This document shows positions 9,073 through 53,565 of a stretch of DNA of 64,000 bases, in pieces. How positions within the stretch are numbered: position 1 is the first letter of the stretch; the number at the start of each line of letters is the position of its first letter. The DNA lies in NCBI RefSeq assembly GCF_058153355.1, contig NZ_CM177019.1. The stretch is one strand, 5' to 3'. The position numbers and the translations under genes were made by a program. The notes below the pieces were generated by a model. The model was not told the DNA's origin, did no database searches, and worked only from the letters and a program-made list of their open reading frames with translations.

Positions 9073-9417
9073 TTAAACCGCCGCGATAATCTTAATTTCA
9101 ACCTTGTACTTCGGGTTCATCAAACCCGCTTGTACCGTGCAGCGCACCGGCGCATGACCCGCGACAACCCAGGCATCCCACGCTTTATTCATCGCCGCGA
9201 AGTCGTTTTTATCAGCCAGGAAAATGGTGGCATCCAGAATGCTCGATTTATTGCTGCCCTGTTTTTCCAGCACGGCGTCAATCTGCGCCAGCGTGTTGGC
9301 GGTTTGCTCAAAGGCATTGGCGTCGAGGTTTTCCGGTACACCAGTGTAGTAGAGCGTGTTGTTGTGGATTACTACATCAGACCAGCGGGCTTCAGCATCG
9401 ATACGAACGATAGTCAT
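9073..9417 (-). CDS. yoaB: RidA/YjgF/TdcF-family protein
   Basis: ORF 9073-9465; start at ATG 9415-9417 (MTIVRIDAEARWSDVVIHNNTLYYTGVPENLDANAFEQTANTLAQIDAVLEKQGS...) giving 114 aa. Confidence 0.85.
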   Translation of the reverse strand: MTIVRIDAEARWSDVVIHNNTLYYTGVPENLDANAFEQTANTLAQIDAVLEKQGSNKSSILDATIFLADKNDFAAMNKAWDAWVVAGHAPVRCTVQAGLMNPKYKVEIKIIAAV

Positions 9418-9524
9418 CATTTTGTCCTCATTATCCTTCCATTTTCGTGCTGCAAAGACTGCCACAATGTGAGGTCGCCGTCACCACTTCAACTGGCGAA
9501 AGCGCCCTCATCCTGACATAATCC

Positions 9525-9540
9525 CTGTTCAAATCAACAG
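9525..9540 (+). promoter_or_regulatory. LexA (SOS) box immediately upstream of yoaA
   Basis: CTGTTCAAATCAACAG fits the CTGT-N8-ACAG LexA consensus, 9 bp upstream of the yoaA start; yoaA is a known SOS-regulon gene. Confidence 0.6.
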
Positions 9541-9548
9541 GGGGTAGT

Positions 9549-36087: not shown

Positions 36088-36522
36088 GGTATGCCGTCCT
36101 TTCGTTTTTTAGCACAGGTTAAGAGCCGTTCATATGAATAGTAGAGGCTCCCGGAAGAGGTAAACTGAACGACGTCTCTTGCTAAAACACAGCAACTCTC
36201 ATGCCATTTTAACGACGATGAGAACAACGTGCCCGGTGATACACCTTCAAAATTAAGCGTAGATGGCAAATGGAAAACTTGCCTGCACGGCTTTCTTAAT
36301 TTCAATGGCATATCAACAACTCATCCATAAAATTTGCATAATTAATGTAAAGACCAGGGTCGCCAGTAACGCGTAATTCATTTGGCTGTAAGCGTGGTGT
36401 CATCTGCGTCAGGAAAATTAAACAGTTACTTTAAAAAATGAAAACGTAAAAAGGTTGGGTTTCGATGTATTGACGGGTAAACTTTGTCGCCCGCTAAACA
36501 TTTGTTTAAGGAATGATTAATT

Positions 36523-37269
36523 GTGACCAAACTCAAACTTCTGGCACTTGGAGTGCTTATCGCAACGTCTGCAGGCGTAGCGCACGCTGAAGGTAAATTT
36601 TCCCTGGGCGCAGGCGTAGGTGTCGTTGAACACCCATATAAAGATTACGATACCGATGTTTACCCAGTACCGGTAATCAACTATGAAGGCGATAACTTCT
36701 GGTTCCGTGGCTTAGGTGGTGGTTACTACCTGTGGAATGACGCAACGGATAAACTTTCAATTACCGCTTACTGGTCGCCGCTTTACTTCAAAGCTAAAGA
36801 CAGTGGCGATCACCAAATGCGTCACCTGGATGACCGTAAGAGCACCATGATGGCTGGTCTGTCTTATGCTCACTTTACCCAGTACGGTTACCTGCGTACC
36901 ACCCTGGCTGGCGATACCCTGGATAACAGCAACGGCATCGTCTGGGATATGGCCTGGTTGTATCGTTACACCAACGGTGGCCTGACCGTGACTCCGGGTA
37001 TTGGTGTGCAGTGGAACAGCGAAAACCAGAACGAATACTATTATGGCGTATCGCGCAAAGAGTCCACTCGCAGCGGTCTGCGTGGCTATAACCCGAACGA
37101 CAGCTGGAGCCCTTACCTGGAGCTGAGTGCCAGCTACAACTTCCTCGGTGACTGGAGTGTTTACGGTACCGCGCGCTACACCCGTCTGTCTGATGAAGTT
37201 ACTGACAGCCCAATGGTGGATAAATCCTGGACTGGCCTGATTTCTACCGGGATCACCTACAAATTCTGA
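36523..37269 (+). CDS. mipA: MltA-interacting outer-membrane protein
   Basis: 248-aa ORF, GTG start, signal peptide (MTKLKLLALGVLIATSAGVAHA) and C-terminal aromatic beta-barrel signature (ITYKF). Confidence 0.92.
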   Translation: MTKLKLLALGVLIATSAGVAHAEGKFSLGAGVGVVEHPYKDYDTDVYPVPVINYEGDNFWFRGLGGGYYLWNDATDKLSITAYWSPLYFKAKDSGDHQMRHLDDRKSTMMAGLSYAHFTQYGYLRTTLAGDTLDNSNGIVWDMAWLYRYTNGGLTVTPGIGVQWNSENQNEYYYGVSRKESTRSGLRGYNPNDSWSPYLELSASYNFLGDWSVYGTARYTRLSDEVTDSPMVDKSWTGLISTGITYKF

Positions 37270-37302
37270 TAATGCATCTTTCCAGGGCATTTTGTGCATA
37301 AA

Positions 37303-37326
37303 AACAGGGCGTAATGCCCTGTTTTG
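37303..37326 (+). terminator. rho-independent terminator after mipA
   Basis: AACAGGGC-GTAAT-GCCCTGTT hairpin followed by TTTT, about 35 bp after the mipA stop. Confidence 0.65.
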
Positions 37327-37358
37327 CATTACGGTGGTGCAATACCTGGGAGGAAACA

Positions 37359-38213
37359 ATGCAACAAAAAATGATTCAATTTAGTGGCGATGTCTCACTG
37401 CCAGCCATAGGGCAGGGAACATGGTATATGGGCGAAGATGCCAGTCAGCGTAAAACAGAAGTTGCTGCACTACGCGCGGGCATTGAACTCGGTTTAACCC
37501 TCATTGATACCGCCGAAATGTATGCCGATGGCGGTGCCGAAAAAGTGGTTGGGGAAGCATTAACCGGTCTGCGTGAGAACGTCTTTCTCGTCTCTAAAGT
37601 CTATCCGTGGAATGCTGGCGGGCAAAAAGCGATAAATGCATGCGAAGCCAGTTTACGCCGTCTCAATACTGATTATCTCGATCTCTACTTATTACACTGG
37701 TCTGGCAGTTTCGCTCTCGAAGAGACTGTCGCAGCGATGGAAAAATTGATCGCCCAGGGAAAAATCCGCCGCTGGGGCGTTTCTAACCTTGATTATGCCG
37801 ATATGCAGGAACTCTGGCAGCTGCCGGGGGGAAATCAGTGTGCCACTAATCAGGTGCTTTACCATCTCGGTTCACGAGGGATTGAGTATGATCTACTCCC
37901 CTGGTGCCAGAAACAGCAGATGCCGGTGATGGCTTACAGTCCATTAGCCCAGGCCGGGCGGTTGCGCAATGGACTGTTAAAAAATGCGGTAGTCAACGAA
38001 ATTGCACATGCTCACAATATCAGTGCGGCACAAGTATTGTTGGCGTGGGTAATCAGCCATCAGGGTGTGATGGCGATTCCAAAAGCGGCAACTGTCGCAC
38101 ATGTCCAACAAAATGCGGCTGTGCTTGAGGTTGAACTTTCGTCAGCGGAATTAGTTATGCTGGATAAAGCGTATCCGGCACCAAAAGGAAAAACTGCGCT
38201 GGATATGGTGTGA
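37359..38213 (+). CDS. yeaE: aldo-keto reductase (methylglyoxal reductase)
   Basis: ORF 37314-38213; start at ATG 37359 after SD GGGAGG (MQQKMIQFSGDVSLPAIGQGTWYMGED...) giving 284 aa. Confidence 0.9.
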   Translation: MQQKMIQFSGDVSLPAIGQGTWYMGEDASQRKTEVAALRAGIELGLTLIDTAEMYADGGAEKVVGEALTGLRENVFLVSKVYPWNAGGQKAINACEASLRRLNTDYLDLYLLHWSGSFALEETVAAMEKLIAQGKIRRWGVSNLDYADMQELWQLPGGNQCATNQVLYHLGSRGIEYDLLPWCQKQQMPVMAYSPLAQAGRLRNGLLKNAVVNEIAHAHNISAAQVLLAWVISHQGVMAIPKAATVAHVQQNAAVLEVELSSAELVMLDKAYPAPKGKTALDMV

Positions 38214-38263
38214 TGTTGATACGTGCCGGATGCATCGCACCCGGCACACAATATTAACGCAAA

Positions 38264-39148
38264 TTAACGTTTCGCAACGCGAATGGATTGCGCCAGATGT
38301 GCAGGTTTCTCTTTGGTGACTTTTTGCGTTTCTGAAGCGTATGCCGTTTCTACACAAACAAAGGTCTTGTAGCCATCATCCGGCATATCGCCCATGCTAA
38401 CTGAAAGCGCCGGTCCTGGGTTCCAGCCTACAACGTTCAGATGATGCTGGTGGCCTACGGCGATAATACGATTCAGCGCTTCGTCATTAATTACGCTGCA
38501 ATCTTGCGGATTCAGATACACGCGATCGGTACGGTCAGGGAAGGTCTGAATACCGTCGGTCAGTACATCTTCTTTCGCGTCATTTACTTTATCAATGAAG
38601 CGATCGCCTAGTCCACTGACGCTTACCTTAGCGATATCACCCACGTTAAAGTAGGTATGCAGAGCAGAGGTAGTTTCAAATTCGCCGTGTGCTTCAAGAT
38701 CGATTTCACAGGCTTTACCTACGCGGAAATGCGCTAACAGCGTAAAGTCGTGCGGCCAGAATTTTTTCGTCTCTTCGCTTTGTGTCAATTCAAAAGTCAG
38801 CGCTACACCATCAGCATCTTCACGATGTGATTTCAGCGTCCACGGCAGGTTGCGGGCAAAACCGTGCGCAGGCAGACCTTGTTGTGCAGCCGGACCAAAC
38901 CACGGCCAGCAAACCGGTATGCCACCGCGAATGGCGACGCCATTTTTGAACGGTGTGTTGTTACTCAACCACAGAACTTCTTCTTCACCCGCAGGTTTCC
39001 ACGAGAGAAGGTGTGCGCCCTGTAATGCAAAAGAGGCTTTTACCTGGGGATGATCGACCACAATGAGGTCCAGTTCATCCAGTTTACGACGGGAGAGGAC
39101 AGGGGAGATTTGTTCGATGACCGGAAGGGCAAAAATTTTCTTAATCAT
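38264..39148 (-). CDS. yeaD: glucose-6-phosphate 1-epimerase (aldose 1-epimerase family)
   Basis: ORF 38264-39169; start at ATG 39146-39148 (MIKKIFALPVIEQISPVLSRRKLDEL...) giving 294 aa. Confidence 0.9.
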   Translation of the reverse strand: MIKKIFALPVIEQISPVLSRRKLDELDLIVVDHPQVKASFALQGAHLLSWKPAGEEEVLWLSNNTPFKNGVAIRGGIPVCWPWFGPAAQQGLPAHGFARNLPWTLKSHREDADGVALTFELTQSEETKKFWPHDFTLLAHFRVGKACEIDLEAHGEFETTSALHTYFNVGDIAKVSVSGLGDRFIDKVNDAKEDVLTDGIQTFPDRTDRVYLNPQDCSVINDEALNRIIAVGHQHHLNVVGWNPGPALSVSMGDMPDDGYKTFVCVETAYASETQKVTKEKPAHLAQSIRVAKR

Positions 39149-39178
39149 GACGCAGTCCTTTAACTTCATTTTATCAGG

Positions 39179-39210
39179 TAAAAAAAAGAGCGACCGAAGT
39201 CGCTCTTTTT
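39179..39210 (-). terminator. rho-independent terminator after gapA
   Basis: AGAGCGAC-CGAA-GTCGCTCT hairpin flanked by A8 (plus strand) and T5; on the minus-strand gapA transcript the stem is followed by a U-run. Confidence 0.8.
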
Positions 39211-39231
39211 AGATCACAGAGTCATCTCAAC

Positions 39232-40239
<1,008 letters not shown>

Positions 40240-40568
40240 CTATTTGTTAGTGAATAAAAGGTTGCCTGTAAAATTACAAAAACCTTACGCAGCGTCAAGC
40301 GGAATCGTGTCAATCATTGCGACAAATCAATCCTGTGCCTAAGCATTATGCGACTGACTCGCCTCACTCTTCCTTTGGGCTTGAGACCACATGGGGTCGG
40401 CGCCCCGAATTTTAAAGGGCAATTACGATAAAAATGTGATTTTCATCACGATTTAGGTGCAGCCATTTCGTCGAGATCAAGTTTAGGACAAAATTTTGCC
40501 AGTTGGTGTTAATGTTTTGTTGGAATCAGTCACGTAATGTGAGTACGATTAAAGTGAGATGTGAGCAA

Positions 40569-40982
40569 ATGGCTAATAAACCTTCGGCAGAAGAACTGAA
40601 AAAAAATTTGTCCGAGATGCAGTTCTACGTGACGCAGAATCATGGGACAGAGCCGCCATTTACGGGTCGTTTACTGCATAACAAGCGTGACGGCGTATAT
40701 CACTGTTTGATCTGCGATGCCCCGCTGTTTCATTCCCAAACCAAGTATGATTCCGGCTGTGGTTGGCCCAGTTTCTACGAACCGGTGAGTGAAGAATCCA
40801 TTCGTTATATCAAAGACTTGTCACATGGAATGCAGCGCATAGAAATTCGTTGCGGTAACTGTGATGCCCATCTGGGGCATGTCTTCCCCGACGGGCCGCA
40901 GCCAACGGGTGAACGTTATTGTGTTAACTCAGCCTCTTTACGCTTTACCGATGGCGAAAACGGCGAAGAAATCAACGGTTGA
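40569..40982 (+). CDS. msrB: peptide methionine-(R)-sulfoxide reductase
   Basis: ORF 40503-40982; start at ATG 40569 ([33 protein letters not shown]...) giving 137 aa; zinc-binding CxxC pairs (CLICDAP, CGNCDAH). Confidence 0.93.
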
Positions 40983-41023
40983 AAAAACGATTCAGCAACT
41001 TATTCCACAGGAGCGGAAAAATT

Positions 41024-41296
41024 ATGAATCTTGATGACATTATCAACAGCATGACGCCTGATGTATACCAGCGTTTGTCGACTGCCGTTGAGCTGGGGAA
41101 ATGGCCCGATGGCGTTGCGCTGACCGAGGAACAAAAAGAGAACTGCCTACAGCTGGTGATGCTGTGGCAAGCCCGCCATAATACCGAAGCACAGCATATG
41201 ACAATTGACACACATGGTCAGATGGTTATGAAGAGCAAACAACAGTTAAAAGAAGATTTTGGTATCTCAGCAAAGCCTATTGCCATGTTTAAATGA
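41024..41296 (+). CDS. yeaC: DUF1315-family protein
   Basis: ORF 40979-41296; start at ATG 41024 after SD GGAGCGG (MNLDDIINSMTPDVYQRLSTAVELGKWPDG...) giving 90 aa. Confidence 0.85.
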   Translation: MNLDDIINSMTPDVYQRLSTAVELGKWPDGVALTEEQKENCLQLVMLWQARHNTEAQHMTIDTHGQMVMKSKQQLKEDFGISAKPIAMFK

Positions 41297-41464
41297 TTGA
41301 ATTATTCAGCTTTTTGAGTCTGTTATTAAGTGCGAACAAAAATACTTGTTTGACGTCTTGATTGTTCGATTTAGCGGTTGATAGGTTAAATGCAACACTG
41401 ACGAGTATAACCTGGCCTACGATGTCAATGAGGAAATGTAGGCCAGAGATGTATTCAACTAATA

Positions 41465-42106
41465 TTACTCCTGCGTCTCTTCCCAGTCTGCCAGCGTATA
41501 TAGCGTTGCCCCAGCTGCTGACATCTCCATAAACGCGTGCGCACTGTCCTGTGGCTGGATATTCACGCCACGACAACCATCGGTAATCACATTAACCTTA
41601 TAACCTAACTGTAACGCGTCCAGCACGGTAAACTTCACGCAATAGTCAGTAGCCAGGCCCATAATGATCAATTCATCGATTTCATGATCGCGTAACCAGT
41701 CATCGAGCGTGGTTTTCTGCCGACGGCCGTTATCAAAAAAGGCACTGTAACTGTCAACTAAAGGATTTTCGCCTTTATGGAACACCGCTGCGATCGCTTT
41801 TTGGTTCAGTAACGGATGTAATTGTGCGCCTTCACTGTTCTGCACACAGTGATCTGGCCAGAAGGTTTGTGGCAAACCGTCGAGTTGGCCTGGCGTATAA
41901 GGCTCTACACCGTGCTGACTGGCAAAACTGCCGTGATTCGCCGGGTGCCAGTCTTGACTGGCGATAACCGCTTCACCGCGCGACTGGCACCAGTCAATCA
42001 GGCGGTTAGCGACATCCACCGTACTGTCACCTTCCGGCACGGCGAGCGCGCCACCAGCACAGAAATCATTTTGTAAATCGACCAGTAACAGGGCGCGAGG
42101 GGGCAT
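41465..42106 (-). CDS. pncA: nicotinamidase / pyrazinamidase
   Basis: ORF 41465-42124; start at ATG 42104-42106 (MPPRALLLVDLQNDFCAGGALAV...) giving 213 aa. Confidence 0.93.
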   Translation of the reverse strand: MPPRALLLVDLQNDFCAGGALAVPEGDSTVDVANRLIDWCQSRGEAVIASQDWHPANHGSFASQHGVEPYTPGQLDGLPQTFWPDHCVQNSEGAQLHPLLNQKAIAAVFHKGENPLVDSYSAFFDNGRRQKTTLDDWLRDHEIDELIIMGLATDYCVKFTVLDALQLGYKVNVITDGCRGVNIQPQDSAHAFMEMSAAGATLYTLADWEETQE

Positions 42107-42116
42107 TGCAGTCTCC

Positions 42117-43133
42117 TTAATCATCCGGCGTCAGTTCGCCGCGCAGGTTTTGGCTCATGGCCTTGCGAATGGTTTCAGTATCCAGTTCCTGGCTAAGCAG
42201 GTAATGCAGTTTGGTTAGCGTGGCTTCTACAGTCATATCTGCACCGCCAATAACGCCGGCATGGGCGAGGGCGTTACCGGTGGCATAACCCCCCATGTTC
42301 ACTTTACCGGACATACATTGTGTCAGGTTGACTACCACAATTCCGCGATCGCTGGCTTCTTGTAATTCTTGCAGGAAGGCTTTGTTTTGTGGCGCATTAC
42401 CCACGCCATATGAGCGCAGAATCAATGCTTTCACCGGTTGGCGCAGAAAATTGCGCACGACGTCAGCAGAAATCCCCGGATAAATCGTCACTACGCCAAT
42501 TGGTTGTGGGGTGATTGGATGAACGATCAATTCCCCTTCACCGTGCGGGGCTGGGGGGGTATTCAAACGACGAATGTGGATACCTGCTTCCAGTAACGGA
42601 GGAAGGTTTGGAGAGGCAAACGCATCAAAACCATCGGCATGGGCTTTGGTGGTACGGTTGCCACGATAAAGTCGATTATTAAAAAAGAGAGTTACTTCGT
42701 TGATAGGATAATTCGCCGCAACGTACAACGCATTCAGCAGATTAATTTGTCCGTCAGAGCGTAACTCAGCCAGCGGGATTTGTGACCCTGTCACAATGAC
42801 CGGTTTACCGAGATTCTCGAGCATGAACGACAGCGCAGAGGCGGTATACGCCATCGTGTCGGTGCCGTGCAGAATGACAAAACCATCATAGTCGTCATAA
42901 TGCGCTTTAATATCTTCAGCAATATGCTGCCAGTCTTCTGGCGTCATATCTGAAGAGTCCATCAGCGGCGTATATTCATGAATGGTGAAATCTGGCATCT
43001 CCGGGCGATGGAATTCCGGCATCAGCGCCAGTTGGCGTTGTAGATGACCTGACACCGGAATATAACCCTGCTCGGAACGCTGCATCCCGATGGTCCCGCC
43101 CGTGTAGGCGACGTAAATTGATTTCTTTTGCAT
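42117..43133 (-). CDS. ansA: cytoplasmic L-asparaginase I
   Basis: 338-aa ORF MQKKSIYVAYTGGTIGMQRSEQGYIPVSGHLQRQLALMPEFHRPEMPDF...; asparaginase TGGTIG motif. Confidence 0.95.
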   Translation of the reverse strand: MQKKSIYVAYTGGTIGMQRSEQGYIPVSGHLQRQLALMPEFHRPEMPDFTIHEYTPLMDSSDMTPEDWQHIAEDIKAHYDDYDGFVILHGTDTMAYTASALSFMLENLGKPVIVTGSQIPLAELRSDGQINLLNALYVAANYPINEVTLFFNNRLYRGNRTTKAHADGFDAFASPNLPPLLEAGIHIRRLNTPPAPHGEGELIVHPITPQPIGVVTIYPGISADVVRNFLRQPVKALILRSYGVGNAPQNKAFLQELQEASDRGIVVVNLTQCMSGKVNMGGYATGNALAHAGVIGGADMTVEATLTKLHYLLSQELDTETIRKAMSQNLRGELTPDD

Positions 43134-43264
43134 GATATTGATATGAATGATATCGAAAGAGCAAAAGTATATACGTGAGGGGCAGCGAGCGCACCTGGTT
43201 ACTCTGTGGATATGAGAAAAGTCCGGCAGAACGGAGGGATTAGTGTCCCGCCGGAGAAAAGTGG

Positions 43265-43987
43265 TTAATCCTGCAACGCATAGGTTACGGTGGTGACTAC
43301 GCGTACCGTTTTATTAATCGCCGTAGGATCATCTTCATCACTGCCACTGGCGAAGATCTGGAACACGCCTTGTGAGGCATCGCTAATTGACCCCACCTGG
43401 CTACCTGAGTCCGTTGCAAATTGTAATGCTGCGTTGCGTGCATCTTTGGTGGCGGCGGCAATCATCTCAGCGCGCAGTGCGCCAATACCATTAAAGCGAT
43501 AGGCGACTTTGCTCTCAGCGATAGCGCCCTCCGTAGCGACTTGCAGTTCGTTTAATTTCGCGACGACTTTTTCGACAGCAGCAACATTATGGGTTTTTAT
43601 CGTCACTGACCCGTCTGCGTTATAGCGTGGCATTGTGGGATCATCTTTCAGATAAAAGGAATCTGTTCGCTTGCTTTTCCATTGGCCCAGGGTTATCTCT
43701 TTCTCGTTAATCCCCTGAGCATTGAGTTCGGCAACAATTTTTTTCTGCGCGTCTTCCAGTTTCGGGAACAGTTCGCCGGGAATATTACCCTTAAAGTTAA
43801 TCGCAATTGTTAATTCTGCCGTATCTGCGCGAACTTCTTTTTCAGAAAGCCCACGCACATTTACATAACGGTTATTGGTTTTTAAATGTTTAACACCATC
43901 GCCAACAAAATAACCACAGGCGCTAATCCCCAGTCCGAGGACGATAGCGGCAATTAAAGAGGGGGCCTTATTCACTGATAACTCCAT
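43265..43987 (-). CDS. SIMPL-domain (DUF541, YggE/BP26-like) protein with N-terminal signal anchor
   Basis: ORF 43265-44077 (270 aa from GTG); the more plausible start is ATG 43985-43987 (MELSVNKAPSLIAAIVLGLGISACGYFVGD...), 240 aa, a hydrophobic N-terminus followed by a SIMPL-like domain; sits between sppA and ansA. Confidence 0.7.
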   Translation of the reverse strand: MELSVNKAPSLIAAIVLGLGISACGYFVGDGVKHLKTNNRYVNVRGLSEKEVRADTAELTIAINFKGNIPGELFPKLEDAQKKIVAELNAQGINEKEITLGQWKSKRTDSFYLKDDPTMPRYNADGSVTIKTHNVAAVEKVVAKLNELQVATEGAIAESKVAYRFNGIGALRAEMIAAATKDARNAALQFATDSGSQVGSISDASQGVFQIFASGSDEDDPTAINKTVRVVTTVTYALQD

Positions 43988-44090
43988 ATCAGATGCTAAA
44001 TGAGCAAGGGAATGTAGTGGAGAGAGGGAGTGAAAGACAGTCCGATTCAGGAGTGTGGCCGACAGCATATCGGCCACATTTTTGCAGGAT

Positions 44091-45947
44091 TTAACGCACG
44101 TTGGCGCAGGTCAGGCAAAACGCATAACGGTTTTGTGGGTCGTTAAACGCTGCCAGCTTGTCGCTTTCACTTTTAACGGTAGAGGCTACCGAGGCCAGCG
44201 GTGCAGGTAACATGGCCTGGAACGCATCTGGCAACATTGCCCGGACAGAACCAGACATATTGTCCATCACTTTGTCGAAGATGGTCGGTTCATCAACGTA
44301 GTATTCCAGATGCCACTGTTTCACTTTTGCCAGCTCTGCTGCTTTGGCAACCGCATCATCGAAATCCCCGAGACTATCGACCAGCCCGTTAGCTTTTGCA
44401 TCCTGACCGGTCCAGACGTGGCCCTGGGCGATTTTATCAATCTGCTCCGGCGTCGAATGACGCGCATCAGCAACCAGCGTGATAAAGCGTTTATAGCCAT
44501 TCTCAATGCTTAACTGCATCATCTGCTGCGCTTCCGGCGGCAGTGCCTTGGTGATAGAAACATCCGCCAGCGGTGAAGTTGAGACGCCATCGGTATGAAC
44601 ACCAATCGAATCCAAACTATTTTCTACGGTAGTGATCACGCCGAAGATACCGATAGAACCGGTCAGGGTGCTGGGGTTAGCCACAATGTAATTAGCTGGC
44701 GTGGAAATCCAGTAACCACCAGATGCCGCCATGCCGCCCATCGATACAACCACAGGCTTACCCGCTGCCCTGGCGGCTGCCAGTTCAGCGCGAATCACTT
44801 CAGAGGCGGTAACGCTGCCGCCAGGGCTATTAACACGCAGAACAATCGCTTTCACTTTCGGGTCAAGGCGAGCGTCGCGGATTTGTGCCGCAGTGGTATC
44901 ACCGCCAACATTCCCCTGAGTTTCCTCGCCATCCATAATTGCGCCATTCGCGAAGACGACACCGATGCTGTCACCGGTATCTGCCGGCGTTTTCAATGCG
45001 TAATCGTAATAACTGATGGCGCGATAATTTTTATCAGTCTTACTCCAGCCGAACTCTTTGGTCAGAGCTTTTTCGATTTCGGCACTTGATGCCAGTGCAT
45101 CGACCAGCTTGTTTTCCAGCGCATATTTCGCGGTATCGCCACCTGTTTTGGTTAAACCCTCAAGCAACCCTTGCGCACCAGGGAATACCTGCTGAGCAGG
45201 GATCTGCCGGTTAGCGGCAACAGTATTCAGATAGTTTTGCCACAGCTCACCGATCCAGCGGCTGTTAGCTTCGCGGGCTGCCGGTGACATATCATCACGA
45301 ATAAACGGTTCAACGGCAGATTTATACGTACCCACGCGGAACACATGGGTGGAGACTTTCAGCTTATCCAGTAACGATTTGTAGTACAGACCGTTGGTAG
45401 CAAAACCGTGCAGATCCACCACGCCTTGTGGAGATAGCCAAATTTTGTTGGCGAAACTGGCGAGATAATATTGCCCCTGGCTGTAGTTCTCGCCTATGGC
45501 ATAAACTGGTTTCCCGCTGTCACGAAACTCTTTCAGGGCTTTGCCGATGTACTGCATAGACGGCTGGTCGCCGCCTGCGAAGTTTTTCAGATCCATCACG
45601 ATACCGGTGATATTGCGGTCGTCCTTTGCCTGGCGAATGGTGTTGACGATATCAAACAGTGAGTTTTCCTGCAGACGATCGGAACTGGCACCAAGGAGCT
45701 GGCGGCTTAGCTTACTAAACCGCTGAGAACTGTCGGGTTTATCGACGATTACACCAGATATGTCCAGCAGCAGCGCGCCACGACTGGCCGTTTCTTTCGA
45801 ATCACCACCACTGACCTGCATCCAGATCCCCACACCAACCAGTACGAGAAAAATAAAGAACAGGTTAAGTACCATTTCACGGACGAAATTCAGCAGACGC
45901 CACGTCCATTTAAAAAATCCGGCAATAAATCGCCAAAGGGTTCGCAT
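44091..45947 (-). CDS. sppA: signal peptide peptidase A (protease IV)
   Basis: ORF 44091-46091; start at ATG 45945-45947 ([38 protein letters not shown]...) giving 618 aa; tandem S49 peptidase domains. Confidence 0.93.
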
Positions 45948-46107
45948 GTATTCTCCCAACTTAAGGTCACACCTGTCACAGGCGCAATAGATGTGGTTAT
46001 CGTAATGACCCAACCGGCACTTGTCAGCAGGAATTGCGGACTGTGCTGTAACAAAATCCACTCTCGTGTTAATTTTGTGAATAAATATCATGACAGGAGT
46101 TAATCAA

Positions 46108-46659
46108 ATGGATGCACTCGAACTATTGATCAATCGCCGTAGCGCCTCCCGCCTGGCTGAACCTGCGCCAACGGGTGAACAACTGCAAAACATACTGCGA
46201 GCGGGTATGCGTGCCCCGGACCATAAGTCCATGCAACCGTGGCATTTTTTTGTGATTGAAGGGGAAGGACGCGAGCGTTTCAGCGCATTATTGGAACAGG
46301 GGGCGATTGCTGCCGGTAGTGATGACAAAGCTATCGTCAAAGCGCGTAATGCGCCGTTCCGCGCACCGCTCATCATAACGGTGGTGGCAAAATGCGAAGA
46401 AAATCATAAAGTCCCGCGCTGGGAACAGGAAATGTCTGCGGGATGTGCGGTCATGGCGATGCAAATGGCAGCAGTTGCCCAGGGGTTTGGCGGCATCTGG
46501 CGCAGTGGCGCATTAACTGAAAGTCCGGTAGTGCGTGAAGCATTCGGTTGCCGTGAGCAGGATAAAATGGTCGGTTTTCTCTACCTTGGTACGCCGCAGT
46601 TGAAAGCATCTACATCGATAAACGTTCCGGACCCGACGCCGTTTGTGACTTATTTCTGA
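46108..46659 (+). CDS. ydjA: nitroreductase-family protein
   Basis: ORF 46090-46659; start at ATG 46108 ([39 protein letters not shown]...) giving 183 aa. Confidence 0.9.
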
Positions 46660-46775
46660 TAATTGTCGCGAAACTGTCTGGATTGTGAGCAAAGGCGCAG
46701 GAATTCAGACACTCTCACTTATCACTTCATGGAATGAGGGTTACCATACCCGGATTGCATTGACAGGAGATGTCC

Positions 46776-47819
46776 ATGAGCGAGAACTCGATTCGTTTGA
46801 CCCAATACAGCCACGGTGCAGGTTGCGGCTGTAAAATTTCCCCAAAAGTGTTGGAAACCATCCTGCACAGTGAGCAGGCGAAGTTTGTTGATCCGAATTT
46901 GCTTGTGGGTAATGAAACCCGCGACGATGCGGCGGTGTACGATCTGGGCAATGGCACCAGCGTTATCAGTACCACCGACTTCTTTATGCCGATCGTTGAT
47001 AATCCTTTCGATTTTGGCCGCATTGCGGCGACTAACGCCATCAGCGATATCTTCGCGATGGGTGGCAAACCGATTATGGCGATTGCGATCCTCGGCTGGC
47101 CTATTAACAAACTTTCCCCTGAAATTGCCCGCGAAGTAACCGAAGGTGGACGCTATGCATGCCGTCAGGCGGGTATTGCGCTGGCTGGCGGTCACTCCAT
47201 CGATGCGCCGGAGCCGATTTTTGGTCTGGCGGTAACGGGGATCGTACCGACCGAGCGGGTGAAGAAAAACAGTACTGCACAAGCCGGATGCAAACTGTTC
47301 CTGACGAAACCGCTGGGAATTGGCGTTCTTACTACGGCTGAGAAAAAATCACTGCTGAAACCAGAACATCAGGGACTAGCGACGGAAGTGATGTGCCGGA
47401 TGAACATCGCAGGCGCGTCCTTTGCCAACATCGAAGGCGTAAAAGCGATGACTGACGTGACTGGTTTTGGTCTGCTGGGGCATTTGAGCGAAATGTGTCA
47501 GGGTGCTGGTGTGCAGGCGCGAGTCGACTATGAAGCGATCCCGAAACTGCCGGGGGTTGAAGAGTACATTAAGTTGGGCGCAGTGCCTGGCGGCACCGAA
47601 CGTAACTTTGCCAGCTATGGGCATCTGATGGGTGAAATGCCGCGTGAAGTGCGCGATCTGCTGTGCGATCCGCAAACTTCTGGCGGTCTGCTGCTGGCGG
47701 TCATGCCGGAAGCAGAAAATGAGGTCAAAGCTACAGCCGCCGAGTTTGGCATTGAACTGACGGCGATTGGCGAACTGGTGCCAGCGCGCGGCGGTCGTGC
47801 CATGGTTGAGATCCGTTAA
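46776..47819 (+). CDS. selD: selenide, water dikinase (selenophosphate synthetase)
   Basis: ORF 46770-47819; start at ATG 46776 ([30 protein letters not shown]...) giving 347 aa; Cys17 in the glycine-rich loop. Confidence 0.95.
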
Positions 47820-47823
47820 TTCA

Positions 47824-49779
47824 ATGCGGTTGTTTATTGCCGAAAAACCGAGTCTGGCGCGCGCCATTGCTGATGTCCTGCCCAAACCGCACCGGAAAGG
47901 CGATGGCTTTATCGAGTGCGGTAATGGCCAGGTGGTGACCTGGTGTATCGGTCACCTGCTTGAGCAGGCGCAGCCAGACGCCTACGACAGTCGCTATGCG
48001 CGCTGGAACCTGGCCGATCTCCCCATTGTCCCGGAAAAGTGGCAATTACAGCCACGACCCTCCGTGACCAAACAACTTAACGTCATCAAACGCTTTCTGC
48101 ATGAAGCCAGCGAAATCGTTCACGCCGGTGACCCGGACCGTGAAGGGCAATTGCTGGTAGATGAAGTGCTGGACTACCTGCAACTGGCACCAGAAAAGCG
48201 CCAGCAGGTACAGCGTTGTTTGATAAACGACCTGAACCCGCAGGCGGTTGAGCGGGCTATCGATCGTCTTCGCTCCAATAGCGAGTTTGTACCACTGTGC
48301 GTTTCTGCGCTGGCGCGAGCACGAGCCGACTGGTTATACGGCATCAATATGACCCGCGCGTACACCATTCTCGGTCGTAATGCGGGTTATCAGGGCGTGC
48401 TTTCCGTGGGACGCGTGCAGACGCCCGTGCTCGGGCTGGTGGTGCGCCGCGATGAAGAAATTGAAAACTTCGTGGCGAAAGACTTCTTTGAAGTCAAAGC
48501 GCATATCGTGACACCTGCCGATGAGCGGTTTACCGCTATCTGGCAACCGAGCGAAGCGTGTGAACCGTACCAGGATGAAGAAGGGCGCTTGTTACATCGT
48601 CCGCTGGCGGAGCATGTGGTCAACCGCATCAGCGGCCAACCGGCTATTGTCACCAGCTATAACGATAAACGGGAATCAGAATCCGCACCGCTGCCGTTTT
48701 CGCTTTCGGCGTTGCAGATTGAAGCGGCTAAACGCTTTGGTCTGAGTGCGCAGAACGTGCTTGATATCTGCCAGAAGTTGTACGAAACGCACAAGCTAAT
48801 CACTTATCCGCGTTCCGATTGTCGCTATCTGCCAGAAGAGCATTTTGCCGGACGCCACGCGGTGATGAATGCTATCGGCGTCCATGCGCCGGATCTGTTG
48901 CCGCAACCAGTGGTAGATCCAGATATACGCAACCGCTGTTGGGATGACAAAAAGGTCGATGCGCACCACGCCATCATCCCGACCGCGAGGAGTTCTGCCA
49001 TCAACCTGACGGAAAACGAGGCGAAGGTCTATAACCTGATTGCTCGTCAGTATTTGATGCAGTTCTGTCCGGACGCGGTGTTCCGCAAGTGTGTTATCGA
49101 ACTGGAAATAGCCAAAGGCAAATTTGTCGCTAAAGCCCGTTTTCTTGCTGAAGCAGGCTGGCGCACACTGTTAGGCAGCAAAGAGCGCGATGAAGAAAAC
49201 GACGGCACGCCACTGCCTGTGGTGGCGAAAGGCGATGAGTTGCTGTGTGAAAAAGGTGAAGTGGTAGAGCGGCAAACCCAGCCGCCGCGCCATTTTACCG
49301 ATGCAACACTGCTTTCGGCGATGACCGGGATCGCGCGCTTTGTGCAGGATAAAGATCTGAAAAAGATCCTTCGTGCCACCGATGGTCTGGGGACAGAAGC
49401 AACCCGTGCCGGGATTATTGAACTGCTGTTCAAGCGTGGCTTTCTGACCAAAAAAGGGCGCTATATCCACTCCACCGACGCCGGAAAAGCGTTATTCCAT
49501 TCACTGCCAGAAATGGCTACGCGACCGGACATGACCGCGCACTGGGAATCGGTGCTGACGCAAATCAGCGAAAAGCAGTGCCGCTATCAGGACTTTATGC
49601 AACCGTTGGTGGGGACGCTGTATCAGTTGATTGATCAGGCCAAACGTACGCCGGTGCGGCAGTTTCGCGGCATAGTGGCTCCAGATGGCGGAGAAGGAAA
49701 TAAGAAGACTTCACCCCGTAAGCGAGCAGCGAAAAAAAGCCCGCCATCAGCAGAGGCGGGCAGTGGAGTGATAATGTAA
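47824..49779 (+). CDS. topB: DNA topoisomerase III
   Basis: ORF 47767-49779; start at ATG 47824 ([47 protein letters not shown]...); Toprim and topoisomerase IA domains; 4 bp after the selD stop. Confidence 0.95.
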
Positions 49780-49799
49780 TGCTCTGATGCAGTCAGTTT

Positions 49800-52158
49800 G
49801 TCGGGTAGCAGCGATTCATTACTGTCTCGCCGCCCCCTAAGAACGGTACGTGCGAGTTTCCCCGCATACCGCTCAAGCCTTTATAAGCCTCCACCTTGTG
49901 GGAGACCAGCGTCATTACTATGTAGTTGTCGATGGCAGTTGGGATGGAGTAGGACTAAATTGCTCACATCATCGCTACCGCCAAGAGATTTCTTGAGCAA
50001 ATGATGAACATTCCATCCTGTATCGCGATTAATCGGTTGCTCACATAAAGGGCAGCGCGATCCTTGCCTTTTCCATATAGCGAGAATCCTTTTCTGCCCC
50101 TGTTGGGATTTCTTCCATGAGTAGTCCAGCCTTCTTTCGAAGTATGTTTCCCACTCGGGATCATATGGATTTGCCGTTCCCTTTATTTTTATATAGCGAT
50201 TAATATGGATGTCGCTGGCCCGGGACAGAACATATTTCCTACCCTCCGGATCGACTCCATAAAATCGACCATGACACATTTTTATTGTCGTGTGGTACTT
50301 TCGGAAGATCCATCTCCGGCCTTTGCCGGGATGTCTCCTTCTGCACCACTGCCAGATTTTGCGCCAGATTTGGTTGTCGACATAGTTAAATGTCTCTGCC
50401 GATGCTACATGTTGGTGATAGTTTGCCCACCCGGTGATGATTGGATTAAGCAGATTTATTAGCACCCATGCAGGAACCGTTCGGTTACCTTCAATAGTCT
50501 CTCTGATCTTGCTAAGAAATTGTTTAACGTTTTTCTTGGCTGGTCTGATTATGAGTTTTCTACCGAAGCGTCGGACGTGCTGCCCAAGGAAATCAAATCC
50601 GTCAGTAATGTGAGTGATGACCGTTTTCTCTTCGGATAACGTCAGCCCTCTTTCTGCAAGAAATGATTTCACCAACGGAAGAACATTCTCCTCCAGAAGT
50701 TCTTTCGACTTTCCGGAAATGATGAAATCATCAGCATACCGGACGAAGTGAACCTGATGTTTCCTGAATGTTTTTGAGCGTTTCGGACCAAAGCGATTTT
50801 GCAGCAGTCTTTCCAGTCCATCCAGGGCCATGTTTGCCAGAACTGGAGATATGATTCCTCCCTGGGGTGTACCCGAGAGAGTTTTGCTGAATATGCTTTT
50901 TTCGATGATCCCGGCTTTCAACCAATTACGGAGTATTTGCTTGTCCATAGGAATATTTTCAAGCAGCCACTCGTGGCTAATGTGTTCAAAGCATCCTTTA
51001 ATATCGCCTTCCAGAACCCATTTCGAGGCGTTCCGGGAACTATACATATTACATACCTGTTGAATGGCGTCAGCCGTACATCGCGCTGGTCTGAAACCAT
51101 AACTGTTGTGATCTGCATTAGTTTCCGATACAGGCTCCAATCCCAGCAGATGCAGGGCCTGCATTGCCCTGTCAAGCATGACGGGGATTCCTAATGGTCT
51201 TTTCTTGCCATTAGATTTGGGTATAAAAACTCTTTTTAGCGGTAGGGGCTTGTACCCTTTTCGCCTGAGTTTGAATATCGCTTCCCATTTTGATTCTGGA
51301 GTACTCCAGATTTGACCATCAACTCCGGGGGTTTTACGCCCGCTATTTTCCGTAACTCGTTTCACCGCCAGTGCTCTGGCGCTGAATGAGCGAACCAGCA
51401 ATCGTTGCAATCTACCGACTGTACGCCATTGCTGGTTACATGCCGCCTTTGCGATTCTTGTCTGTATGGTTTTAACGTGTTGATGGCATTTCTTCCAGTT
51501 AATGGAATGCCAACCTTTTCCGTTGATGACCGCAGTTACATTGTTAGATGTAATTTTCATACATGTCATCCAAAGAAACCTTCGCAGATGTTTCGCAATT
51601 AAAGACCAGATGGAAGTCAGCACGGTTTCCCGTTAAGGCAAATATTGAACCTCTATCCGCACGATTACAGTCCGGCTTTCGCTTTTTCCATCCTCCTTTA
51701 CCCGCATTCTCATCAGTTTGCCTTACGGTGCCCCTGCCACTAGGGCGAGAATTCGGGCTTACCAAGTTCCGACCAACATACAAAGAACGGGTTAGGTTCT
51801 GTCTATCCGCCGGGGGAGTTATTGTCCATGTATTCCCACTACGAACAGGAATAGCCTTACCCCTTACCTTTTGGTGCAAGCCTATCAGCATCTTTGGCTC
51901 GTTCTCTGTTACGACGTTTAACGACAGTTCACTATGTTAACCATACCGCCCAGCCTAGCGCTCTCGCCGCATGATGCTTGTAGCGATCAGGTTTTCTCAC
52001 GATTAACTGAAGCAATATTTGCTAAGCTACATTGTCCCAAGGGCTTCAGACAGAGCCGTTACCAGCTTTGCCTGCCTCAGTAGGCTACAACTAATGGAAT
52101 AGTTGGTTTTATATAAATAATTTATCAAAACAATATGTTGGACGACTTCTTGTCGCAC
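49800..52158 (-). mobile_element. group II intron, full length with intact intron-encoded protein (boundaries approximate, +/- 10 bp)
   Basis: Minus strand: 5' end GTGCGACAAG... at 52158; about 535 nt of domains I-III; ORF in domain IV (49881-51560); canonical 34-nt domain V GAGCGGTATGCGGGGAAACTCGCACGTACCGTTC at 49842-49875 (AGC triad, GAAA tetraloop) 6 nt after the ORF stop; short domain VI ending about 49800. Confidence 0.85.
49881..51560 (-). CDS. group II intron reverse transcriptase/maturase with C-terminal HNH endonuclease domain
   Basis: ORF 49881-51623; likely start MKITSNNV... at ATG 51558-51560; RT block with YADD catalytic motif (VHFVRYADDFIISG), maturase X region, and HNH/En motif (CPLCEQP...WNVHHLLKKSLGGSDDVSNLVLLHPNCHRQLH). 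Confidence 0.88.
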   Translation of the reverse strand: MKITSNNVTAVINGKGWHSINWKKCHQHVKTIQTRIAKAACNQQWRTVGRLQRLLVRSFSARALAVKRVTENSGRKTPGVDGQIWSTPESKWEAIFKLRRKGYKPLPLKRVFIPKSNGKKRPLGIPVMLDRAMQALHLLGLEPVSETNADHNSYGFRPARCTADAIQQVCNMYSSRNASKWVLEGDIKGCFEHISHEWLLENIPMDKQILRNWLKAGIIEKSIFSKTLSGTPQGGIISPVLANMALDGLERLLQNRFGPKRSKTFRKHQVHFVRYADDFIISGKSKELLEENVLPLVKSFLAERGLTLSEEKTVITHITDGFDFLGQHVRRFGRKLIIRPAKKNVKQFLSKIRETIEGNRTVPAWVLINLLNPIITGWANYHQHVASAETFNYVDNQIWRKIWQWCRRRHPGKGRRWIFRKYHTTIKMCHGRFYGVDPEGRKYVLSRASDIHINRYIKIKGTANPYDPEWETYFERRLDYSWKKSQQGQKRILAIWKRQGSRCPLCEQPINRDTGWNVHHLLKKSLGGSDDVSNLVLLHPNCHRQLHSNDAGLPQGGGL

Positions 52159-52160
52159 TC

Positions 52161-52195
52161 GTAGGCCAGATAAGGCGTTCACGCCGCATCTGGCA
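52161..52195. repeat. REP (repetitive extragenic palindrome) element downstream of gdhA
   Basis: GTAGGCCAGATAAGGCGTTCACGCCGCATCTGGCA matches the E. coli REP consensus family (GCCGGATGCGGCGTGAACGCCTTATCCGGCCTAC) with a G-to-A variant in each arm. Confidence 0.75.
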
Positions 52196-52221
52196 TAAAC
52201 GCCTGAAACGGCGCTAATGAC

Positions 52222-53565
52222 TTAAATCACCCCCTGCGCCAGCATCGCATCGGCAACCTTCACAAAACCGGCAATGTTCGCGCCCTGCACGTAGTTGGTT
52301 TGCTCACCTTCACCACCATGCTCAACACAGGCATGGTGGATATCCAGCATGATGTGATGCAAACGTGCGTCAACTTTCTCGGCTTTCCAGCCCAGGCGCG
52401 CAGCGTTTTGCGCCATTTCCAGGCCGGATGTAGCTACGCCACCAGCATTAGCCGCTTTACCCGGTGCAAACAGTACGCCTGCCTGCTGGAACAGTTCAGT
52501 CGCTTCGATGGTGGTCGGCATATTTGCCCCTTCGGCGACGGCTTTAACGCCATTGGCGATAAGCTGATGCGCGGCGTCTACATCCAGTTCGTTCTGGGTG
52601 GCGCAAGGCAGGGCGATATCAACCGGTACAGACCACGGCTGTTGGCCTTCGAGATAGACCAGGCCAAATTCTTTGGCGTAATCTGCCACTCGACCATCGC
52701 GGCTGGCTTTGATTTCGATAAGACGTGCCAGTTTCTCTTTAGTGAATCCGCTTTCATCAACGACAGTGCCACTGGAATCTGACGCAGTAATCACACGGGC
52801 ACCAAATTCCATCGCTTTTTCGATAGCGTACTGAGCGACGTTGCCGGAGCCAGAAACGGAAACGCGCATCCCTTCAAAACCCATACCGTGGCGTTTTAGC
52901 ATTGCTTCTGTGAAATAAACCAGACCGTAGCCGGTTGCTTCCGGGCGAATAAGACTGCCGCCAAAAGAAAGCCCCTTACCGGTGAAGACGCAGGCGGTAT
53001 TGTTGGAGAGCTTTTTCATCATCCCCGCCATAAAGCCGACTTCACGACCACCAACGCCGATATCGCCCGCCGGAACGTCGGTATCTGCGCCCAGGTGGCG
53101 ATACAGTTCAGTCATTAGCGCCTGGCAGAACCGCATCACTTCGCCTTCGCTTTTCCCTTTCGGGTCGAAATCGCTGCCGCCTTTACCACCGCCCATTGGC
53201 AGAGTTGTCAGGGCATTTTTGAAGGTTTGTTCAAAGCCGAGGAATTTGAGAATGGAGAGGTTTACCGACGGATGGAAGCGCATACCACCTTTGTACGGGC
53301 CGATGGCGGAGCTGAACTGCACGCGCCATGCACGGTTGACCTGCACCTGGTTGCGATCGTCAACCCATACCACGCGAAACTGGATCACGCGCTCCGGCTC
53401 AACCAAGCGCTCCAGTAATGACATTTGGCGATATTTTGGATTTTGTTCAAGAAAAGGCCAGAGTGTGGTCATTACTTCACGAACGGCTTGCGCGAACTCG
53501 GTTTGATTCGGGTCGCGCTTTTGGACATGGTTGAGGAATGACTCCAGAGAATATGTCTGATCCAT
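52222..53565 (-). CDS. gdhA: NADP-specific glutamate dehydrogenase
   Basis: 447-aa ORF MDQTYSLESFLNHVQKRDPNQTEFAQAVREVMTTLWPFLEQNPKYRQ...; matches E. coli GdhA. Confidence 0.97.
   Translation of the reverse strand: MDQTYSLESFLNHVQKRDPNQTEFAQAVREVMTTLWPFLEQNPKYRQMSLLERLVEPERVIQFRVVWVDDRNQVQVNRAWRVQFSSAIGPYKGGMRFHPSVNLSILKFLGFEQTFKNALTTLPMGGGKGGSDFDPKGKSEGEVMRFCQALMTELYRHLGADTDVPAGDIGVGGREVGFMAGMMKKLSNNTACVFTGKGLSFGGSLIRPEATGYGLVYFTEAMLKRHGMGFEGMRVSVSGSGNVAQYAIEKAMEFGARVITASDSSGTVVDESGFTKEKLARLIEIKASRDGRVADYAKEFGLVYLEGQQPWSVPVDIALPCATQNELDVDAAHQLIANGVKAVAEGANMPTTIEATELFQQAGVLFAPGKAANAGGVATSGLEMAQNAARLGWKAEKVDARLHHIMLDIHHACVEHGGEGEQTNYVQGANIAGFVKVADAMLAQGVI

Follow-up and report, generated by a model that had tools for sequence, protein, structure and literature searches.

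A group II intron beside a REP element between gdhA and topB of Escherichia coli, and the recurrent occupation of REP tails resembling its plasmid toxin-gene target

The interval between gdhA and topB on the Escherichia coli contig NZ_CM177019.1 (NCBI RefSeq assembly GCF_058153355.1) was analysed as part of a 64,000-nucleotide (nt) stretch, hereafter the window, and was found to hold a full-length group II intron, the only copy within the window, whose 5' end lies against a repetitive extragenic palindromic (REP) element. The features that make up the locus, with coordinates of the window, are as follows:

49800..52158, minus strand: full-length group II intron, IIB1/CL1-like, 2,359 nt, recognised by RF02012 and RF00029, its ends set by empty-site alignment
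49881..51560, minus strand: intron-encoded protein (IEP) of 559 amino acids (aa), from translation, with the Pfam domains RVT_N, RVT_1, GIIM and HNH
52159..52195, minus strand: REP element forming the 5' exon, TGCCAGATGCGGCGTGAACGCCTTATCTGGCCTAC followed by GA; of the intron-binding sites (IBS), IBS1 occupies 52159-52164, IBS2 52167-52171 and IBS2a 52172
49780..49799, minus strand: 3' exon, a 20-nt spacer to the topB stop, joined directly to the REP in strain EC42405, whose allele is empty; +1 A is 49799
52222..53565, minus strand: gdhA, NADP glutamate dehydrogenase, in the same orientation as the intron (Pfam and annotation of the orthologous locus)
47824..49779, plus strand: topB, DNA topoisomerase III, convergent with gdhA and the intron (Pfam; coding sequence of 1,956 nt from orthologous annotation; stop at 49777-49779)

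Both ribozyme models scored above their Rfam gathering scores, RF02012 (group-II-D1D4-7) at 51959-52106 on the minus strand with 112.5 bits and RF00029 (domains V/VI) at 49800-49876 on the same strand with 65.5 bits, while the intron ends, GTGCG at 52158 (5') and ...CTACCCGAC (...CCCGAC) at 49800 (3'), fit the consensus 5' GUGYG / 3' AY. The IEP is encoded within intron domain IV by a complete open reading frame with an intact YADD motif and reverse transcriptase (RT), maturase (X) and HNH endonuclease domains, and the element as a whole looks intact, judging from this reading frame and the two model scores. Among solved structures the best match of the IEP is the TeI4h maturase-RT (6me0_C, E=2e-187, residues 35-572). 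A tblastn comparison found approximately 53% identity to an IEP on a pO157-type plasmid, which was identified as that of EcI5, judging from a flank bearing the published C-18, C-17, A-15 and A-14 (PMC8643678). By these two matches the IEP is predicted to belong with the CL1 reverse transcriptases.

The minus strand of 52161-52195 reads TGCCAGATGCGGCGTGAACGCCTTATCTGGCCTAC, an imperfect palindrome of 35 nt between the gdhA and topB stops. An earlier reading of this DNA, made from its letters only and referred to here as the sequence-only reading, had placed the intron 5' end beside this palindrome and the 3' end some 20 bp from the topB stop; its coordinates were correct, the distances being 2 nt and 20 nt (49780-49799), respectively. 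For E. coli REPs a consensus, GCCGGATGCGGCGTGAACGCCTTATCCGGCCTACGA, has been published on the basis of 224 of the 356 annotated K-12 REPs; it ends in ...GGCCTACGA (PMC12306157). Against ...GCCGGATGCGGCGTGAACGCCTTATCCGGCCTAC(GA) the element matches at 34 of 36 positions, its two differences (G to A and C to T) keeping a stem pair. Since the two nucleotides between palindrome and intron, GA, are part of the consensus, the intron abuts the end of the REP consensus exactly. The same 35-nt REP recurs in other E. coli intergenic regions, such as yhgF-feoA and ybaL-gsk, and megablast placed this variant at a median of two places per genome, taken to be these two. The K-12 feature table returned no REP annotation, so that the identity of the element rests on the literature consensus and on its dispersed copies. 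Exact 10- to 13-mers of the intron target have no other occurrence within the window.

The insertion was compared with intron-less alleles, as the sequence-only reading had advised. In the intron-less E. coli EC42405, the 83-bp topB-gdhA spacer and its surroundings are identical at 161 of 161 positions to the window flanks joined at 49799/52159, and the insertion was therefore exact to the base, with neither target duplication nor deletion. It had also been remarked that K-12 carries ynjI (b1762, DUF1266) between gdhA and topB and that no such gene is present here, which the K-12 record and a tblastn search of the whole window bore out, the best YnjI-like match being non-significant (E-value 0.007 over 54 aa). 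Among 5,426 complete E. coli genomes, 3,506 (65%) have the gene and 1,920 lack it, so that it is an ordinary presence/absence polymorphism at topB-gdhA. A short spacer alone parts topB and gdhA in 1,513 genomes, and of the three alleles of the interval only the rarest carries the intron target. The common short spacer (approximately 1,500 genomes, for example WCHEC4533) is about 79% identical to the window type and provides a negative control, as its REP-like hairpin ends in ...CCGGCAATAAAAA without the GGCCTACGA tail. The window-type spacer (at least 99% identity) was found in 18 of the 5,426 genomes, fifteen of which differ from it by a one-base indel. These 18 are also the nearest relatives of the window, at 99.2-99.3% identity over 13.8 kb against approximately 97% for other E. 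coli, and none of them carries the intron. Of the two histories that had been offered, entry into the existing REP-containing spacer of a lineage devoid of ynjI is borne out by EC42405 and these relatives, while an acquisition coupled to a deletion is ruled out by the empty site. The gene ynjI plays no part in the insertion; the ynjI-less spacer allele of a rare lineage merely carries the right REP tail.

The intron is otherwise encountered on plasmids. Only two of the 5,426 complete E. coli genomes carry it, both as plasmid copies beside a Hok-family toxin, and no chromosomal copy was present among them. In PLSDB, 20 full-length copies of 77-99.6% identity were found in Escherichia, E. albertii, Salmonella, Citrobacter and Enterobacter, most of them annotated next to a Hok-family toxin, and plasmid pRHB33-C08_2 bears a copy with 99.6% identity to the window intron. 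On IncF-type plasmids, about 30 related copies interrupt Hok-family toxin genes at codons (L/M)-A-Y-E, with PF01848 HOK_GEF genes called just upstream of intron copies, and copies from metagenomes and draft genomes use the same hok/srnB sites. The joined exons restore ...REVAAFMAY^ESGK (Hok) or ...NTVVQVTLAY^EARK (SrnB), the Glu codon being split GA/A (a slash marks the insertion point throughout); the restored Hok join is presumably identical to that of R1 Hok. This consistent placement makes the (L/M)-A-Y-E codons, which are conserved in the hok/srnB genes of F-like plasmids, the homing site of the family. Our literature search found nothing specific on a group II intron homing to hok/srnB, the F33 plasmid intron described as 'downstream of ycjA' being a different element.

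Some further introns were also met. A contig search with a 36-nt intron 5' pattern gave no match, and a 17-nt pattern gave 112, nearly all unrelated introns (from Bacteroidales and others), of which only one was relevant. This contig, from Pluralibacter sp. UBA7423 (L020, DKMD01000026.1), carries at 214-300 a different group II intron that shares with the present one its first 17 nt only and lies at an apparent Hok-family C-terminus, ...GTTCTCGCCTACGAATCGAGG/GTGCG..., then AAGTGA, 8 nt further downstream than the insertion point of the present family. Separate intron lineages thus seem, by this one example, to target the 3' end of hok. On plasmid pCRST030_1 (L002), a second, unrelated ltrA (WP_058914895.1, at 9164-10370) is found in the leading region, at a distance of 3 kb from the intron inserted in hok, and a group of IEPs approximately 60% identical to that of the window is widespread on IncF plasmids of E. 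coli and Klebsiella.

Target reading in EcI5 proceeds through its exon-binding sites (EBS), with the pairings EBS1/IBS1, EBS2/IBS2 (-13..-9), EBS2a/IBS2a (-14) and EBS3/+1, and a Watson-Crick EBS2a-IBS2a pair at -14 is a feature of IIB1 and IIB2 introns (PMC8643678). The corresponding sites of the window intron are:

51839..51844, minus strand: EBS1, 5'-UCGUAG-3', intron nt 315-320; pairs with IBS1 CTACGA and covaries with it
51904..51910, minus strand: EBS2, 5'-CAGAG-3' (intron nt 251-255), and EBS2a, A (nt 249), aligned position for position with EcI5

Two types of intron, each with its own target, were distinguished within the family:

hok-type intron: EBS1 TCGTAA, EBS2 CATGA, EBS2a G; target ...TCATGGCTTACGA/A
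srnB-type intron, including the window copy: EBS1 TCGTAG, EBS2 CAGAG, EBS2a A; target ...CTCTGGCCTACGA/A

EBS1 TCGTAG accompanies GGCCTACGA and TCGTAA accompanies GGCTTACGA, a C/T exchange at -6 within IBS1, and likewise EBS2 CAGAG accompanies CTCTG (srnB) and CATGA accompanies TCATG (hok). As the two EBS1/EBS2 types track the two target types across more than 30 copies, the pairings are established.

The window site, TCTGGCCTACGA/A, is the same as the srnB site CTCTGGCCTACGA/A of the closest copy (L004, 99.6% identical) at -12..+1, such that the REP tail presents, over 12-13 bases, the same bases as the Leu-Ala-Tyr-Glu codons of the toxin. In the tail, ...TTATCTGGCCTACGA then A, IBS1 CTACGA pairs 6/6 with EBS1 UCGUAG and IBS2 ATCTG pairs 4/5 with EBS2 CAGAG. 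At -14, EBS2a A (assigned by homology to EcI5) can pair with the T of all three REP sites found occupied (see below) and not with the A of srnB, the hok-type copies having EBS2a G opposite T-14, and all copies with a visible 3' junction have A at +1. At the positions read by RNA, the REP site is no worse a match than that of srnB. The consensus tail ATCCGGCCTACGA and the ATCAGGCCTAC tail targeted by the insertion sequence (IS) IS621 both mismatch EBS2 at -10, and the three occupied REPs are all of the rarer ATCTGG form.

A scan of the window for EBS-compatible sites allowing G-T wobble was dropped as too permissive, with approximately 100 matches. Two GGCCTAC heptamers in opposite orientation, 24 bp apart, were noted at 41414-41444; one reads CCTGGCCTACGA/T, with a perfect IBS1, three of five IBS2 pairs and a +1 T, and this site is unoccupied and is not a canonical REP.

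Chromosomal copies elsewhere were found by exact-protein look-ups of the IEP and of part of its 193-member cluster. At ybaL-gsk, two NCBI assemblies (L134, L135) have as 5' exon the identical 38-nt REP, ...ATGCCAGATGCGGCGTGAACGCCTTATCTGGCCTACGA, followed across the intron by ACCGACG; 4,692 of the 5,426 complete genomes have the uninterrupted, empty site, many at 100% identity. At leuQPV-rsmC, the 5' junction is seen in one copy (L153), where the REP is a different one, ...TGCCAGATGCGACGCGGGCGCGTCTTATCTGGCCTACGA/, and the 3' junction, /AGGGCTAACG..., leading into rsmC, in another (L130). The empty site, seen in strain KE55, lies inside an inverted REP pair, where the tail is the same as that of the window REP and the stem and loop are different. 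A further copy (L152) interrupts the coding sequence of ptrB at ...AAACTGATCTACGA/ (...ATCTACGA/), with IBS1 pairing 6/6 and IBS2 3/5. No hok-type copies were seen at REPs, and the odd hok-type sites (L006, L126, L144), which match the IBS in part, are of unrelated sequence.

Over the first 2,100 intron nt, these copies fall into three haplotypes:

Haplotype A: window, L130 and L131; 9 differences from B and 7 from C
Haplotype B: plasmid srnB copies and L134; 2 differences from C
Haplotype C: L135, L152 and L153; 7 differences from A and 2 from B

The ybaL-gsk site is thus occupied by haplotypes B and C and the rsmC site by A and C, and because different haplotypes share the same sites, at least five of the REP insertions are independent. 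As close copies occupy the same REP-tail position at two other loci, the adjacency of REP and intron is beyond chance. The intron is in sense orientation to gdhA and, at ybaL-gsk, to the upstream ybaL, and antisense to rsmC, which indicates that its orientation follows the REP and not the host gene. The resemblance to REP-targeting IS elements that the sequence-only reading had drawn therefore stands in part: other copies do flank REPs, at ybaL-gsk (L134, L135) and leuQPV-rsmC (L130, L153), and insertion at REPs is recurrent, although the specificity appears to be one of sequence pairing and not of REP structure. Taken at the level of sequence mimicry, the recurrent targeting of REPs is, in our view, real. 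Somewhat less firmly, we favour the view that the srnB-type sub-lineage (EBS1 UCGUAG, EBS2 CAGAG, EBS2a A) may home regularly, as to a secondary target, into the 3' tail of this REP subfamily, ...CTTATCTGGCCTACGA/A.

Two assembly features of these copies are recorded here. One contig (L131; Logan SRR34880567, 2,360 nt) holds nothing but the intron with its +1 A, while L130 begins at -12, so that contigs break at or near the intron ends, as is expected if the sample holds at least two copies with flanks that diverge at -13, for example an srnB and a REP copy. Another contig of 54.8 kb (L136; GCA_042204225.1, ABUXTC010000036.1) joins a plasmid srnB 5' flank, with an SMC-like gene upstream, to a chromosomal gsk-aes 3' flank, and reflects either an assembly error spanning the 2.36-kb repeat or a genuine plasmid-chromosome cointegrate from recombination between intron copies.

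We consider it probable, at roughly 85%, that an IIB1/CL1 intron homing to hok/srnB on plasmids was reverse-spliced into a chromosomal REP tail which mimics the RNA-read part of its target. The source would be a plasmid-borne intron whose usual target is the C-terminal (L/M)-A-Y-E codons of the toxin genes, and reverse splicing would have occurred into an ectopic chromosomal site that copies the part of the target read by RNA, IBS1, IBS2, IBS2a and the +1 A being supplied by the REP 3' tail within the short, ynjI-less topB-gdhA spacer of a rare lineage. Synthesis of cDNA, primed at the target by the IEP with its HNH domain (target-primed reverse transcription), would then account for the precise junction. 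The intron is probably co-transcribed in the 3' untranslated region (UTR) of gdhA, from which it could splice out and express its IEP, and it may be active at present.

It is conceivable, if improbable, that the intron merely retrotransposed to a random target-like site and that the REP is irrelevant, as group II introns are known to retrotranspose rarely to look-alikes of their homing sites, the ptrB copy lies in coding sequence and complete E. coli genomes hold no chromosomal copy; yet three REP-tail loci are occupied, in several assemblies and by different haplotypes, which largely refutes such a coincidence, and IBS1 lies inside the REP consensus itself. Slightly less credit still is given to the notion that the ribonucleoprotein or the IEP recognises the REP hairpin as such, in the manner of IIC introns or some IS transposases. 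All three REP sites do place the intron identically, just 3' of the stem-loop, which is the IIC geometry, and in Pseudomonas putida KT2440 two of nine group II intron copies have been tabulated as REP-associated (Tobes and Pareja, PMC1525189). However, IIC introns have no EBS2 (PMC8643678) while the present intron has one that covaries, and its IEP is closest to that of the CL1 intron TeI4h. Moreover, the commonest sites (hok and srnB) and ptrB are coding sequence without a REP hairpin, two REPs with different stems and loops and the same tail are both used, and IBS2 lies in the 3' stem arm, where a folded hairpin would hide it. Because hairpin-free sites and REPs of different stem are used and IBS2 is so placed, specificity is best read as RNA-DNA pairing (EBS1, EBS2, EBS2a, and +1 if EBS3 pairs there), the REP as a structure playing no part.

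That the intron moved from one REP locus to another by homologous recombination or gene conversion across the REP they share, in place of reverse splicing, is very unlikely. The gdhA-topB and ybaL-gsk sites do have an identical 38-nt 5' flank, and the srnB-gsk contig described above implies that recombination or mis-assembly between copies occurs; against this, the 3' flanks have only the +1 A in common and so lack homology there, the REP at rsmC has internal differences, and the srnB donor site has no REP. We attach next to no weight to a gain of the intron coupled to the loss of ynjI, whether the ynjI segment was deleted as the intron entered or was replaced. This idea draws on the position of ynjI, exactly in this interval in K-12 and in 65% of complete genomes, but it is refuted by the identical, intron-less and ynjI-less 83-bp spacer with its close counterparts in the 18 nearest relatives, and the junctions exact to the base and the other short ynjI-less spacer of some 1,500 genomes also speak against it.

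Several points count against the proposed reverse splicing of a plasmid intron into a mimicking REP tail. Mobility, splicing and transcription of the intron at gdhA-topB are predicted from its sequence, and the chromosomal sample is small, comprising four loci in roughly seven assemblies or read sets, one of which, the ptrB copy, sits at a non-REP site. At leuQPV-rsmC, L153 lacks the 3' junction and the 5' flank of L130 is only 12 nt. The targets are not perfect, as A at -13 of the REP site faces G at the 3' end of EBS2, and positions -15 to -19 of the 5' exon differ from srnB, some distal 5'-exon positions being read by the RT in EcI5 (PMC8643678). A second negative control, in favour of the proposal, is the yhgF-feoA REP, which is identical to the window REP at -35..-1 and has T at +1; no occupied case of it was seen, which would fit an EBS3/+1 requirement but is weak evidence given the rarity of the intron.

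In its layout the intron resembles EcI5 (E. coli pO157, IIB1, CL1 RT), as judged by alignment of the 5' GTGCGACA.GAAGTCG, the EBS2a-A-EBS2 arrangement at nt ~249-255 and the EBS1 loop, and in an IEP with RT, X and endonuclease (En) domains. It differs from EcI5 in its IEP, in DNA too divergent for megablast and in its target, that of EcI5 being ...CCAAACTGGTGCTCGAAT/, with no association with hok or REPs reported for EcI5. TeI4h / Th.e.I3 of Thermosynechococcus (IIB1/CL1, cryo-EM structures 6ME0/6MEC) offers the closest solved IEP, the same class and DNA target recognition, in a cyanobacterial host and with different targets. IIC introns recognise terminator or attC stem-loops, have a small open reading frame without an En domain, and use as target a stem-loop with a short IBS1/IBS3. 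The window intron shares with them insertion just 3' of an intergenic stem-loop; in contrast to them, it is of the IIB1 type, with a covarying EBS2, HNH in its IEP and hairpin-free coding sites also in use, and it is not a IIC intron.

IS621, of the IS110 family, has the natural target ATCAGGCCTAC, which it reads via a bridge RNA, and makes use of the abundant ATCAGG REP tails, 129 sites (PMC11208160). It is, like the present intron, which reads ATCTGGCCTACGA/A, an RNA-guided mobile element reading the same REP end; however, it employs a recombinase, a bridge RNA and a double-stranded DNA circle where the intron employs a ribozyme, an RT and reverse splicing, and the best match of the intron is the rare ATCTGG tail followed by GAA. 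The parallel is one of resemblance and not of relationship. Plasmid-to-chromosome retrohoming (Kl.pn.I5) in Enterobacteriales and ectopic moves to homing-site-like sites have been documented (PMC3522654). The ectopic retrotransposition of Ll.LtrB and Kl.pn.I5 likewise leads from a plasmid or mobile element to homing-site-like chromosomal sites, but here the look-alike is a repeated element, so that the same kind of site is struck repeatedly. Of a IIB1 intron that repeatedly uses the tails of E. coli REPs, our literature search found no specific description.

One further feature of the locus, found by a terminator scan and RNA folding, lies downstream of the intron on the gdhA-sense strand:

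49731..49762, minus strand: terminator-like hairpin GCCCGCC...GGCGGGC followed by U7, within the last ~15 codons of topB

This hairpin suggests that gdhA may terminate inside the convergent topB, in which case the intron would sit in the gdhA 3' UTR, between the REP and the terminator. On the topB-sense strand an A-run lies upstream of the hairpin, which would not terminate topB. The C-terminal ~30 residues of TopB (window 49680-49779) differ from those of K-12 (L003), with small indels, so that the variability of the locus extends into the tail of topB. Most of the nearest relatives (H145-H153) are approximately 700 bp longer than the window over 36000-49799 (two aligned pieces, 14,503 against 13,800 bp), which points to a small indel somewhere upstream of topB.

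The value of this locus lies in target-site biology and annotation, the insertion not being a ynjI-related event. In bacteria, group II introns as a rule stay within other mobile DNA, and their route to safe chromosomal sites is only partly understood. While the mechanism envisaged here is the ordinary one of IIB1/CL1 introns, the class of target is new, and the coincidence of the tail of a REP subfamily with the L-A-Y-E codons of a toxin offers a concrete and testable route by which a plasmid intron may reach the chromosome. REP tails that differ at single IBS positions, occupied or not, make up a natural test set for this route. IS1397 also targets E. coli REPs, and the present findings add a retroelement, beside IS621, to the elements that do so. 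If the proposed reading is true, REPs would serve as chromosomal landing pads at which a plasmid intron settles in the 3' UTRs of housekeeping genes (gdhA, ybaL) and, in antisense orientation, in the rsmC region, and two unrelated RNA-guided elements, the intron and IS621, would have converged on REP tails.

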